From IMG/VR virus record IMGVR_UViG_2778261571_000007: DNA of 12,976 nucleotides; one strand, written 5' to 3'. Shown here one piece after another: positions 419 to 12,403 of the stretch (positions are counted from its first letter, which is position 1; every line of letters starts with the position of its first letter). The notes under the pieces were generated by a model, which saw only the letters and a program-made list of their open reading frames with translations, ran no database searches and was not told where the DNA came from. A program made the position numbers and the translations under genes. This DNA comes from a virus (lineage: Duplodnaviria > Heunggongvirae > Uroviricota > Caudoviricetes).

Positions 419-574
419 TTACTCCTCAGGTTCGTAAGCTGTGAAGACAGCGACCTCCGTCTGACCGGTTCGGATTCGCACCTCGCAGAGGTCTTTCCTC
501 GTTACCAGTGCCGTCACTATGACGGTTAAACAGATGACAATCAGTGCGACTAACATCGCCTTTTGCTGCTTCAT
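419..574 (-). CDS. hok: Hok/Gef family type I toxin (51 aa, small membrane-damaging peptide)
   Basis: The translation MKQQKAMLVALIVICLTVIVTALVTRKDLCEVRIRTGQTEVAVFTAYEPEE matches the Hok/Gef signature (N-terminal transmembrane helix, conserved RKDLCE...R.G..EVA.F.AYE) and is near-identical in pattern to E. coli HokC/HokD as I recall them. ATG at 572-574 has a GGAG Shine-Dalgarno upstream. Confidence 0.9.
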   Translation of the reverse strand: MKQQKAMLVALIVICLTVIVTALVTRKDLCEVRIRTGQTEVAVFTAYEPEE

Positions 575-631
575 AGCCTGCTTCTCCTTGCCTTCCGGCG
601 CGTAAGAGGCTAACCTACATGTGCAAAGCAT
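419..631 (-). CDS. Mok-like in-frame upstream extension of hok (70 aa), putative translational-coupling ORF
   Basis: The ORF starts at the ATG at 631 and reads in frame into hok. Its N-terminal extension MLCTCRLASYAPEGKEKQA resembles the MokC extension pattern. Whether it is translated is not determinable from sequence. Confidence 0.45.
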   Translation of the reverse strand: MLCTCRLASYAPEGKEKQAMKQQKAMLVALIVICLTVIVTALVTRKDLCEVRIRTGQTEVAVFTAYEPEE

Positions 632-1294
632 GAAATTGGCCTCAGATTAATGTTAAGCGTCTTGCCGGACGCGTAATGTTATCTGGGGCTTTTCTCTATC
701 TGCCTTTGGTGTTCATGCCTGAGGCAGATAGCCTCAAGCACCCGCAGCAATTCTACTTAACTCCCGTCACCTCGCCAATATAAAATCAATCAGAAAGGCG
801 ATCCATAAGAACAACAGCAAGACAATAAATTGCCATTACAGCCGCAATAGCTAGCGCACATTTGAGAACCAGCACGACAACCTCCTGTATTGGACGTACA
901 CCAGTTCTGATAAATATGAGGCTGTCTCATCATTGATTCAATATAACTATTGGGTATAGTTTCTGTGATTTTGTTCTGTAGAAATGGAACACAACAACCA
1001 GTCACCACCAGCACTTCTTTAAATACGCCAAGTCCGACGCAAGCTAACCTTCTAGTCCGCTTTGAGCGAGGAGCGGACCAAACCCGGCCAACTGACTCTT
1101 AAAGGGGCCGCAGGAATTTTTCGTCTGAACTTTCGAAGCTCCTCTCCCTGAAGACAGAAAACTTCTGTGTGCTGTGGGAATATTGAATCTTTGCCTTAGA
1201 TATAAATAATTTTATCCCGCCTGAAGTTTACATTATTTTATTTATCTGTTTTTCTAAATCAGACTGCACTCCTTACTTAAATCAGGAGCCAGTC

Positions 1295-10204: not shown

Positions 10205-10286
10205 AAAGAATACCCATAGGTAAACAAAAGTCAATACCCACAGGTTGTTTACCTTGCAGTAATCGCATCTATTATTTACCTATGGA
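10205..10286. promoter_or_regulatory. Divergent immunity-region promoter/operator (OR-like): repeated TACCCA(T/C)AGG / AGGTAAACA motifs with candidate promoter elements on both strands
   Basis: TACCCATAGGTAAACA at 10211-10226; TACCCACAGGTTGTTTACC at 10235-10253; TTTACCTATGG at 10275-10285, overlapping the repressor start codon. Minus-strand -35 TTGACT (plus 10229-10234) and -10 TATTCT (plus 10207-10212) with a 16-bp spacer precede the Cro-like gene. Plus-strand -10 TATTAT at 10270-10275 ends 6 nt before the repressor ATG. Confidence 0.6.
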
Positions 10287-10701
10287 CAAATATGAATTTA
10301 GACGACAGCAACTCATCAAAATTCGTGATGAGAAATGCGATGGTAAAGCGGTTAACGTGGCCAGAAAGATCGGGCGCGAGCCTTCTTATGTATCAAGAAT
10401 GTTGTACCCAGAGGGGAAAAAGGGAAAAAAACGGATCGCTGATGATATGGTGGAGATTATCGAAGAGTCCTTTGGGTTACCCCGGGGATGGATGGATGGT
10501 ATCGTTTCATCATCAACGAACACAGCCTCCAGTTATGAAACAAGGGTTCTAACGCCACGACAACGTATTTTTTTAGATCTCTTAGACGAACTGCCAGAAA
10601 GTGAAGCGGATAACTTATTAAAAACTCTTGAAGAGAAAAAACAGTATTACAATATGATCTACGAAGAAATCCGTAAAAAGAAAGCACAAAACGCATCATA
10701 G
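10282..10701 (+). CDS. Prophage repressor, RacR/CI-position gene, 139 aa
   Basis: Divergent from the Cro-like gene and flanked on both sides by the same operator-like motif. It has a putative helix-turn-helix segment (AVNVARKIGREPSYVSRML) and an acidic C-terminal domain. No Shine-Dalgarno is present, which is consistent with a leaderless transcript. Identity with RacR is inferred from synteny, not sequence recall. Confidence 0.7.
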   Translation: MDKYEFRRQQLIKIRDEKCDGKAVNVARKIGREPSYVSRMLYPEGKKGKKRIADDMVEIIEESFGLPRGWMDGIVSSSTNTASSYETRVLTPRQRIFLDLLDELPESEADNLLKTLEEKKQYYNMIYEEIRKKKAQNAS

Positions 10702-10744
10702 CTCACCAAACAACTAGTCACCAGTTAAGACACCGCAAAAAGTT

Positions 10745-10780
10745 ACCCATGGGTATTTACTTTTTAAATACCTATGGGTA
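10745..10780. promoter_or_regulatory. OL-like operator / hairpin downstream of the repressor gene: TACCCATGGGTATTTA-CTTTTT-AAATACCTATGGGTA
   Basis: A near-perfect 16-bp inverted repeat carries the same TACCCATRGGTA motif seen in the divergent promoter region. It is followed by TCCTTCTTTT, so it could also act as the repressor-gene terminator. Confidence 0.55.
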
Positions 10781-10955
10781 TCCTTCTTTTCATACCAACC
10801 CACCCCGCCCCACAGAATGCAGGGCAATACTTCGAGTTACCAGGCAGTGGTCAGGGGTTAAGTAGCCAGCCCGAGGCGTAAGAACATGACGGCGGGATTC
10901 AAATTTTGCAGTGCAGCAGTTAGTTCCGCCACCCGGCGTTAAGGGGAGAGATAAG

Positions 10956-11100: not shown

Positions 11101-11256
11101 ATGCAAAAAATCGACCTCGGCAACAACGAATCCCTGGTGTGCGGCGTGTTCCCCAACCAGGATGGAACGTTCACTGCCATGACGTATACCAAAAGCAAAA
11201 CATTTAAAACCGAAACTGGTGCGCGCCGATGGTTGGAGAAGCACACAGTAAGCTAA
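11101..11256 (+). CDS. Small phage ORF, 51 aa (YdaF-position)
   Basis: ATG at 11101. Translation: MQKIDLGNNESLVCGVFPNQDGTFTAMTYTKSKTFKTETGARRWLEKHTVS. Size and position match ydaF of Rac. The Shine-Dalgarno is weak. Its 3' end overlaps the convergent sieB stop by 4 bp. Confidence 0.45.
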   Translation: MQKIDLGNNESLVCGVFPNQDGTFTAMTYTKSKTFKTETGARRWLEKHTVS

Positions 11257-11741
11257 CGATTAAAACGTCTACTCCTGCTGTTCCAGAATAACTTCATAAA
11301 ATGGGAGTATTTTTCGGTGACGAGATAATAAGAACAGTTTGCGCTATCACTCTGATGTTGAATGATGCCCTTCCGTTCTAATTTTTTCATAACCGGGTTA
11401 CGGCAAGGAGAAGTGATAATAAGATTTCCTGTTTTAAGGAAATCTTTAAATACAGCGATTTCTTTCTCAGATAAACGAAGCAATACTCGTTGCTCTGGTA
11501 GTAATGAATAATGCTTTTGAATATGTGCTCGCAATCTTGAGAAGGAAATGGCGACCACGAAAGAAAAGGCAAAAACGATAATCTGAAAGAGCCAAGGCAT
11601 TTCAGTATAAGCATTGAATGCGACAGTAAACTCTTTCGGTATCAGCCAGAGAGTGAGACCAAAAATGATAATCGTATACATAAGTCTTTCGAGTGGCTCG
11701 TTAGCAAAAAGTTTCAACAATGGAGTAAATACATCCAACAT
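11253..11741 (-). CDS. sieB: Superinfection exclusion protein B (SieB), 162 aa
   Basis: Begins MLDVFTPLLKLFANEPLERLMYTIIIFGLTLWLIP and has two transmembrane segments with a basic C-terminal part, the SieB family pattern. Start is the ATG at 11739-11741 with a GAGAG Shine-Dalgarno. The 266-aa ORF in the track is an unsupported upstream extension of this gene. Confidence 0.75.
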   Translation of the reverse strand: MLDVFTPLLKLFANEPLERLMYTIIIFGLTLWLIPKEFTVAFNAYTEMPWLFQIIVFAFSFVVAISFSRLRAHIQKHYSLLPEQRVLLRLSEKEIAVFKDFLKTGNLIITSPCRNPVMKKLERKGIIQHQSDSANCSYYLVTEKYSHFMKLFWNSRSRRFNR

Positions 11742-11958
11742 ATCAATAACTCTCAACTGTAAGGGTATTGAAATGTTAACACAAGCTCTCGCTGTAGGGG
11801 TATAGCCGAGACCACCGAAGCCCGGAGGTGGTGAAATAAAACCGGGCACAACACGAAGGCGCATTTCCGATATCCATAAAGAGTCGGTCTTGTCTGTTAA
11901 ATTTAAATGGTGGAGTGCGCCTCCGGTTGTAAATAACGACATTGCTGTGTGTAGTCCT

Positions 11959-12009
11959 GGCGGCATCAGTTTTTTTCTTGAAGTTCGGCTGATGTCCGCC
12001 CTTTTTAAA
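11959..12009 (+). terminator. Strong hairpin (11-bp stem with one bulge, 19-nt loop) followed by CTTTTTAAA; candidate intrinsic terminator or regulatory RNA structure between sieB and kilR
   Basis: GGCGGCATCAG at 11959-11969 pairs with CTGATGTCCGCC at 11989-12000, followed by CTTTTT at 12001-12006. Confidence 0.4.
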
Positions 12010-12181
12010 GTGAATTTTGTGATGCGGTGAATGCGGCTAAGCGCACGTGGCACAGTTAAAAGTCATGTTAGTCCTTATTGGTTTGGGTGGGAAAGCCGAC
12101 TGTAATTGTTAACTGGTTGCAGTCACCTGGAGGCACCAGGCACCGCATCAACAAAGTTCATTTGTAAAAATGGAGATAATT

Positions 12182-12403
12182 ATGATTGCACATCACTTCG
12201 GAACTGATGAAATACCACGTCAGTGTGTGACTCCTGGCGATTATGTTCTTCATGAAGGCCGGACATATATTGCCTCGGCAAACAATATTAAAAAGCGAAA
12301 ACTATATATTCGTAACCTGACCACAAAAACATGCATTACTGACCGCATGATTAAAGTCTTCCTCGGTCGTGATGGTTTACCTGTAAAGGCGGAGTCATGG
12401 TGA
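12182..12403 (+). CDS. kilR: KilR-like cell-division (FtsZ) inhibitor, 73 aa
   Basis: ATG at 12182 has a GGAGA Shine-Dalgarno 5 nt upstream; the ORF-track start at 12170 lies inside that Shine-Dalgarno. The length (73 aa) and position (next to sieB, followed by the small zinc-finger ORF and the RacC-like gene) reproduce the Rac order kilR-ydaE-racC. The sequence [14 protein letters not shown]... is consistent with my recollection of KilR. Confidence 0.7.

Follow-up and report, generated by a model that had tools for sequence, protein, structure and literature searches.

The window, that is, the whole 12,976-nucleotide stretch of DNA that was analysed, is a Rac-like lambdoid prophage of Escherichia coli, and Rac is among the commonest prophages of this species. 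The window is reversed in orientation relative to K-12, and its plus strand runs in the direction of the lambdoid "leftward early" operon. On this strand, the gene order is repressor, ydaG, ydaF, sieB (antisense), a gap, kilR, ydaE, racC, and recE, the last lying beyond the window. As in lambda, sieB is antisense to the early-left operon; it provides context and lies outside the RNA module described below. The kilR gene, which makes Rho and NusG inhibition lethal, encodes a product that matched PHROG 294 (Kil protein) with an E-value of 1.4e-35.

Features of the sieB–kilR gap

An earlier note made from the sequence alone had described a 440-bp non-coding gap between sieB and kilR. Its limits were confirmed by the RefSeq annotation (sieB, 11253–11741, minus strand; kilR, 12182–12403, plus strand), and the 266-aa ORF that the note had dismissed as artefactual is an upstream extension of sieB, whose RefSeq product has only 162 aa. 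The gap sequence is identical to that of E. coli strain CP53, and the gap was present at full length in 1760 E. coli genomes. The whole of it is non-coding, yet it is densely structured as RNA on the plus strand. The features of the region are as follows.

11253–11741, minus strand: sieB gene, encoding 162 aa (as annotated by RefSeq in identical or near-identical loci)
11787–11811, plus strand: hairpin A, 10 pairs between 11787–11796 and 11801–11811 with C11806 bulged, GGGG loop
11812–11847, plus strand: hairpin B, CCACC (11812–11816) paired with GGTGG (11827–11831)
11848–11930, plus strand: long-range helix C, 11848–11868 paired with 11910–11930 and enclosing a variable insert (minimum-free-energy fold of the gap)
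11941–11956, plus strand: conserved 16-nt block ATTGCTGTGTGTAGTC, identical to the conserved single-stranded block of RprA; predicted seed
11959–12006, plus strand: very probable DicF-type Rho-independent terminator, with putative sRNA 3′ hairpin and U-tract (fold, Rfam DicF match below threshold, alignment to Qin dicF)
12009–12162, plus strand: structured kilR leader, STnc100-like (Rfam, Qin homology, covariation), with a closing helix of ~20 bp (12009–12029 with 12141–12162) and inner helices 12033–12037/12043–12048, 12049–12051/12095–12097, 12098–12108/12114–12124, and 12126–12130/12136–12140
12172–12175, plus strand: kilR Shine–Dalgarno sequence GGAG, just outside the leader domain
12182–12403, plus strand: kilR coding sequence (RefSeq annotation), the first gene downstream of the RNA module

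Neither a simple scan nor a looser weighted scan revealed a convincing σ70 promoter on the plus strand of the gap, and the best promoter-like matches of the weighted scan within the gap were on the minus strand. Since there is no good plus-strand promoter, production of an sRNA from the gap depends on upstream transcription that crosses sieB in the antisense direction; such an sRNA, if made, would need either derepression of the early-left operon or read-through. Across the gap, an Rfam scan gave no match of the nut or put type, although Rfam may hold no such models. Further upstream, a 16-bp hairpin with a T-rich tail was found at 10744–10790 on the plus strand, after the repressor gene (10282–10701) and before ydaG. 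By analogy with lambda tImm, it is probably the terminator of the repressor gene, in which case the early-left promoter is expected between ~10790 and 10910. Elsewhere in the window, a full-score sok antitoxin RNA (116 bits) adjoins hokD (569–743, minus strand, and about 419–574), and non-phage cargo genes follow sok/hokD inside the prophage, encoding an MFS transporter, a gamma-glutamylcyclotransferase, a LysR regulator, a DUF2254 protein, and a BCCT transporter.

In the left half of the gap, hairpin A is kept beside the sieB start in lambda and in Klebsiella and Salmonella phages, and its stems covary (UCUCG/CGAGA, UCUGG/CCAGA, CUUGG/CCAAG, GCUGG/CCAGC, and CCUUC/GAAGG). A 33-nt element with 94–97% identity to hairpin B occurs in lambda, P22, HK620, and numerous phages of Salmonella and Klebsiella. 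The hairpin B loop GCCCGG (11820–11825) may pair with CCGGGC (11842–11847), which would give an H-type pseudoknot, and the two sides of this modelled pairing co-change (GCCUG/CAGGC versus GCCCGG/CCGGGC). In one variant of hairpin B, a G–U pair on the plus strand corresponds to C–A on the other strand. Because a MAFFT alignment of the two hairpins was out of register for column counts, they were folded sequence by sequence. Both hairpins, each with covarying stems among the homologues, are present nearly unchanged at 34398–34445 of lambda (NC_001416), whose record is unannotated there. Helix C has homologous arms in Qin (GAAAGCGCATGG / CCGTGCGCTTCC) and in the phage loci L025, L228, and L254, where the distal bases are changed and still pair. 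The earlier note had proposed that GC-rich segments at 11816–11830 and 11902–11920 pair with each other. Complementary segments do exist there, but they are not mutual partners, as both folding and homology assign the first to hairpin B and the second to the 3′ arm of helix C.

These structures could be incidental to the plus strand if the gap mainly supplied the promoter, operators, and 5′ UTR of sieB. Measured from the sieB start, hairpins A and B are 44–107 nt upstream, in the equivalent place to that in lambda; the best promoter-like matches of the gap are on the sieB strand; and in P22 a 105-nt antisense RNA, sas, acts on sieB (PMC12197685). Conversely, the hairpin at 11959–12000 lies 218–259 nt upstream of sieB and has its U-tract on the plus strand only, the hairpin and the leader also occur in phages without an adjoining sieB (Qin and Tritos), and the G–U pairs favour the plus strand. 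We consider a minus-strand function, which would be applicable to 11742–11850 only, to be a very improbable account of the gap. Hairpins A and B may relate to a sas-like antisense RNA or to the structure of the pL transcript.

A DicF-type hairpin followed by a structured leader

The hairpin upstream of kilR consists of the arms GGCGGCATCAG (11959–11969) and CTGATGTCCGCC (11989–12000), followed by C (12001) and TTTTT (12002–12006). Its stem has 11 pairs, including 5 G–C pairs at the base, and one bulged U, and its loop is 19 nt long, so that a GC-rich stem directly precedes a U-tract on the transcribed strand. The earlier note had placed a strong hairpin with a T-tract at exactly this position and proposed a folding calculation, which bore it out: the minimum free energy of the RNA was −19.5 kcal/mol, compared with −10.8 ± 2.5 kcal/mol for shuffled sequences (z = −3.5), and the hairpin was better than 199 of the 200 shuffles. 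A simple terminator scan missed it solely through its 8-nt loop limit. On the minus strand, no T-tract follows the hairpin, indicating that any terminator here acts on the plus strand only. The single shuffle that folded equally well could be taken to mean that the hairpin arose by chance in AT-rich spacer DNA, but this explanation is refuted by homology, covariation, and conservation across hundreds of loci, and we regard its probability as negligible.

A permissive Rfam scan matched 11946–12001 to DicF (RF00039) with 39.1 bits and E = 1.1e-6, below the gathering score of 48 and below the 72–77 bits of true DicF copies. The stem base and the U-tract are shared with the DicF terminator (TGGCGG.ATC.G ... 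C.GAT.CCGCCCTTTTTAAAG), and a 209-nt alignment to dicF–dicB of prophage Qin, with 78% identity, begins exactly where the hairpin stem begins and continues as far as the downstream gene. Within this alignment, the two sequences hardly differ in the stem base, the U-tract, and the 50 nt beyond (TGGCGG.ATCAGTTTT ... CCGCCCTTTTTAAAGTGAATTTTGTGATG.GGTGAATGCGGCT). This homology supports the intrinsic terminator suggested in the earlier note, and the Rfam match favours the small RNA that it had offered as an alternative, more specifically than could be seen from the letters alone. Together, these results suggest that the hairpin is, with high probability, an intrinsic terminator homologous to that of DicF. 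Termination may be partial, with a U-tract of just 5 U and a long loop (19 nt).

DicF is a small RNA encoded upstream of dicB in Qin, and its 5′ end is made by RNase E; Rho-independent termination within the dicB operon gives rise to a 53-nt form, and RNase III cleavage of the full-length operon mRNA to a 72-nt form (PMC5069750). The Qin terminator is leaky, as there is a full-length dicBF mRNA, which RNase III cleaves (PMC5069750). By homology, the Rac RNA would likely share this biogenesis, with a 5′ end made by RNase E and a 3′ end made by termination or by RNase III. The order repressor, small ORFs, hairpin, leader, kil or dicB, and exonuclease VIII recurs across sequenced phages, including Qin, Tritos, Evi, Rac-SA53, phiSTEC1589-Stx1c (which also encodes N), 75/02 Stx, and pPE4. 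In phage Evi, a full-score DicF (76 bits) lies directly upstream of a KilR homologue, showing that the DicF slot and kilR are naturally linked.

Related prophages that keep kilR were examined for loss of the hairpin, which the earlier note had named as an observation that would speak against a terminator. Among 80 IMG/VR loci encoding an identical KilR, the hairpin was found upstream of kilR in all 69 that were locatable by the kilR start; as this search returned only 100%-identical KilR copies, the count tests retention of the hairpin and not deep divergence. The wider terminator family comprised 111 distinct hairpins with medians of 14 pairs and −20.9 kcal/mol, and their inner stems covary (for example, CAUCAG/CUGAUG, UACCAG/CUGGUA, UGAUGG/CUAUCA, and UCGGCA/UGUCGA), an ungapped count of 6-nt arms being confounded by bulges. 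Seven IMG/VR members of the family (L018, L043, L047, L057, L088, L111, and L237) have a long interior, ...CUUCAACC...AGGAGG..GAAGAUAAUGUUC..., in which a Shine–Dalgarno-like motif and an AUG are buried within the stem and could represent a mini-ORF or a toxin-like element. Since the loop of the window hairpin (UUGAAGUUCGGC) and the 5′ arm of this long form (GCCGAACUUCAA) are exact reverse complements, sequence comparison suggests that the Rac hairpin is a deletion derivative of it.

Curated K-12 Term-seq 3′ ends and Rho-termination regions, obtained in LB or M63 from uninduced cells in which the operon was probably silent, included none at kilR or sieB, indicating that the RNA is not detectably made in the uninduced lysogen. 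Outside the window, a very strong published Term-seq 3′ end antisense to racC lies at 1417486 (plus strand) of K-12 MG1655. It falls at a hairpin, AGCCTGCGCCATACGCAGGCT, followed by a T-rich tail, a sequence absent from the window, and it implies an abundant antisense transcript near racC and recE.

Downstream of the hairpin, 12003–12189 matched the whole of the Rfam STnc100 model (RF02076, positions 1–206) with 35.5 bits and E = 9.5e-6, below the gathering score of 47. Homology to the dicF–dicB spacer covers the 180 nt beyond the hairpin; the leader is 78% identical to this spacer and shows the multi-helix secondary structure of STnc100, with 12003–12170 folding into a multi-helix domain (z = −4.45). 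In an alignment of 17 diverse homologues, including those from a Klebsiella phage and phage D6, the consensus comprised 44 pairs and 96.9% of the cells could pair. Compensatory changes were present in 13 of these 44 pairs, compared with 3.6 ± 1.4 in shuffled alignments (0 of 500 reached this value) and 1–4 in slid controls. The end of the 72-nt DicF maps ~19 nt past the 3′ end of the 53-nt form, which corresponds to roughly 12020 in the window. As this falls inside the 5′ arm of the closing helix, the helix is, by analogy with Qin, a probable RNase III substrate. The core of an STnc100-like leader was also seen directly upstream of tciA in P1-like phages (D6, L008, 2001–2121; P7, 72453–72568); tciA is annotated with tellurite or colicin resistance or with inhibition of cell division.

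The earlier note had proposed that the terminator insulates the toxic kilR from read-through. This function is plausible but incomplete as an explanation, because the same slot also precedes dicB and unrelated genes, the Qin terminator is leaky, and what follows is a structured leader.

An RprA-identical block, its predicted targets, and its spread

The single strand 5′ of the hairpin reads AACGACAUUGCUGUGUGUAGUC. The 5′ seed that DicF uses for xylR (UUUCUGGUGACG) is absent, and the 16-nt block at 11941–11956, which the earlier note had passed over, stands in its place. This block is an exact 16-mer shared with K-12 rprA; the chance expectation for such a match is 5.6e-4, and none of 200 shuffled RprA sequences reached 16 nt. 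As in RprA, a conserved single-stranded block, UUGCUGUGUGUAGUC, is located immediately 5′ of the terminator. The Rfam RprA model (RF00034) gave 28.2 bits and E = 0.85, against a gathering score of 70, with only the 3′ block aligned. From its sequence, the block is predicted to be a seed of the RprA type, as opposed to the DicF seeds. Its predicted targets are consequently those of RprA, namely the csgD 5′ UTR and dgcM, and not ftsZ.

RprA represses csgD via its 5′ UTR and acts on YdaM/DgcM (PMC3971182; PMC5861431). The block was predicted to form 15 contiguous pairs with positions −98 to −82 of the csgD 5′ UTR, at −24.2 kcal/mol compared with −10.6 ± 2.1 kcal/mol for shuffles (0 of 300). A predicted duplex of 11 pairs was also obtained with +2 to +14 of dgcM. 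A variant seed in other Rac-like prophages, ACACUGCUGUGUGUAGU, gave 16 perfect predicted pairs with csgD. Full-length RNAduplex calculations against ftsZ were uninformative (p = 0.18 versus shuffles for both DicF and the Rac RNA), and seed- or loop-restricted duplexes were used instead. With this restriction, the DicF loop paired with the ftsZ Shine–Dalgarno sequence, whereas the Rac loop gave no pairing above background with the ftsZ translation-initiation region (−10.8 versus −12.7 ± 2.3 for shuffles). Neither the DicF seed nor either of the two loops gave a csgD or dgcM pairing comparable to that of the block. The block has no complementary partner within the window, and a cis antiterminator partner for the seed was rejected on this ground. 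The dgcM gene itself (ydaM; 22875–24107 in the CP53 chromosome record L371), which is an RprA target and a predicted pairing partner of the prophage seed, is situated only ~10 kb outside the prophage, past its integrase end.

We found no description in the literature of an RprA-like seed in such a setting or of an RprA-like prophage RNA, nor any link between dicF and Rac; an earlier mention of a dicF-like sequence in Rac may nevertheless exist. What is new here is a DicF-family module, itself of a known kind, whose predicted seed is that of RprA.

A search with a pattern consisting of the block plus TGGCGG matched at least 120 IMG/VR contigs, and at least 77 distinct cores were found among the matches listed, with unrelated 5′ flanks and hairpin interiors; part of the apparent conservation of the seed arises from its inclusion in the search pattern. 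A scan with the terminator only (TTGGCGG...CCGCCCTTTTT) removes this bias. It revealed three kinds of 5′ sequence, DicF-type, RprA-like, and others, and the RprA-like kind was the most diverse seed class, with about 19–26 of 60 distinct sequences, including the GCUGUGUGGAGUC and GCUGUGUGAAGUU variants. RprA-like seeds are mostly followed by kilR and DicF seeds mostly by dicB, each kind of seed is also found before the other gene, and the RprA-like module stands upstream of unrelated phage ORFs as well. In one-genome-per-species data, the module was found in Escherichia, Shigella, Citrobacter, Enterobacter, Klebsiella, Raoultella, Serratia, Erwinia, Mixta, Buttiauxella, and other genera. In four loci (L025, L068, L102, and L116), an STnc100-like 3′ hairpin (CAGGTGGAGGCACCACC) lies directly before the RprA-like block and terminator. 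As the module order is reversed in these phages, the modules appear to shuffle.

The conservation of the block bears on whether the locus encodes a terminator only, that is, a tL-like attenuator limiting read-through into the toxic kilR, with the RprA-like block as a passive relic and no stable sRNA. The hairpin and U-tract are homologous to a proven terminator, their position directly before division inhibitors is conserved, an N-suppressible terminator is expected in N-encoding relatives such as phiSTEC1589-Stx1c, and no 3′ end or sRNA has been reported at the locus in uninduced K-12, all of which are consistent with this explanation. However, a relic would not hold 16 nt invariant in at least 77 contexts and many genera while its flanks and the hairpin interior diverge. 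Moreover, the block matches a functional host seed and the target of that seed, and the homologous slot in Qin yields a functional sRNA (PMC5069750). We consider a terminator without an sRNA unlikely, while still the foremost of the alternatives.

Another explanation is that the block and hairpin act in cis as a processing or regulatory signal of the operon (for example, a site for RNase E entry or Hfq loading, or a Rho/NusG modulator) controlling the fate of the kilR mRNA. The block and RprA would then be alike because RNase E and Hfq constrain both, and not because they share targets. The block always lies 2–4 nt before the terminator, and kilR is reportedly derepressed when OxyS represses nusG. 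In addition, RNase E cleaves RprA, releasing a shorter form (PMC6202311), and makes the 5′ end of DicF (PMC5069750). A generic RNase E or Hfq signal, however, needs no 16 invariant nucleotides, and DicF-type and other members of the terminator family are quite different in sequence at the block position. The lack of a complementary partner in the window and the occurrence of the same module before unrelated genes also argue against a cis-acting element, which seems improbable to us.

We slightly favour, overall, a DicF-family terminator/sRNA module that carries an RprA seed and targets csgD and dgcM. In this model, most polymerases transcribing the early-left operon would stop at the 11959–12006 hairpin, and cleavage by RNase E in the A/U-rich single strand at ~11930–11941 would yield an sRNA of ~65 nt in which an unpaired 5′ seed (AUUGCUGUGUGUAGUC) precedes the terminator hairpin and a U-tail. 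Hfq-binding sRNAs usually have this layout, and the RNA would bind Hfq. Its seed could then pair with the csgD 5′ UTR and dgcM, leading to control of curli and biofilm formation in place of ftsZ. Polymerases that read through would produce a kilR mRNA with a 150-nt structured leader, and RNase III acting at the closing helix of this leader may separate the sRNA from the kilR message. For the parts of this model, we judge the existence of a stable seed-bearing sRNA to be evenly balanced, and actual regulation of csgD or dgcM by the prophage RNA to be possible though somewhat short of even.

As a DicF-type cassette, the Rac gap ties Rac and Qin to one design consisting of an sRNA, a structured leader, and a division inhibitor. 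More tentatively, lambdoid phages of Enterobacterales may share an early-operon sRNA cassette with a fixed GGCGG...CCGCC-U scaffold and exchangeable seeds, one class of which would be a copy of the host RprA seed delivering a csgD/dgcM-silencing mimic. The copy in Rac, a prophage present in about one third of complete E. coli genomes, would be one case of the RprA-type seed, and the 3′ half of RprA itself may share ancestry with the phage module. If this cassette exists, derepression of the prophage or loss of Rho/NusG silencing would release an RprA mimic that shuts down csgD and dgcM and hence curli and biofilm formation, whereas DicF-type copies would hit ftsZ instead. Should the RprA-identical seed prove functional, it would clearly exemplify a phage that imitates the seed of a host sRNA instead of sponging that sRNA. 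It would also tie biofilm control to prophage induction via CsgD and DgcM, and would show that sRNAs can evolve by exchanging seeds on a conserved terminator scaffold.

Comparison with known systems

The Rac element resembles DicF in its slot in the early-left operon, directly followed by a structured leader and the gene of a cell-division inhibitor, in its homologous GGCGG...CCGCCC terminator hairpin and U-tract, and in its homologous downstream leader. It differs in that both targeting regions are replaced: the 5′ seed is UUUCUGGUGACGUU in DicF and AUUGCUGUGUGUAGUC in the Rac-type copy, and the DicF loop UUUUACUCC, which pairs with the ftsZ Shine–Dalgarno sequence, corresponds to UUUUUUUCUUGAAGUUCGG in the Rac-type loop.

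RprA, a core-genome sRNA with three stem-loops that is induced by Rcs, has the identical 16-nt block at the same distance from its terminator. In both cases, the block ends 2–4 nt before a Rho-independent terminator, putative in the prophage (AAUUGCUGUGUGUAGUCUUUG-hairpin-U-tail versus CAUUGCUGUGUGUAGUCCUG-hairpin-U-tail), and the same csgD and dgcM pairing is predicted. In contrast to RprA, the prophage RNA would lack the RprA 5′ hairpins and the rpoS-activating region, its terminator hairpin differs, it is located in a prophage and not at ydiK–ydiL, and a promoter of its own is not evident.

The kilR leader aligns to the whole STnc100 model and shares the multi-helix architecture of STnc100/PasD. 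STnc100/PasD RNAs proper are Hfq-bound sRNAs of the late region near Q, PR′, and the stx genes, whereas the element in the window is the 5′ leader of kilR (or, in Qin, dicB) in the early-left operon; the kilR leader is thus a distant STnc100 relative in a different operon. The sieB–ral region of lambda and P22 is also similar, with sieB running antisense to pL transcription and a non-coding gap after it (in lambda, N, sieB antisense, non-coding gap, ral ... kil) and with hairpins A and B nearly unchanged in both phages. In lambda, however, no DicF-like terminator or STnc100-like leader comes after these hairpins, and orf28 and ral follow directly.

Finally, AgvB, AsxR, and StxS, from the group of phage-encoded anti-sRNAs and seed mimics, are prophage RNAs that plug into host Hfq networks (PMC4104026; PMC7547250). 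The Rac RNA would likewise act within the host Hfq network, but AgvB and AsxR are sponges complementary to host sRNAs, whereas the Rac RNA would copy the seed of one.
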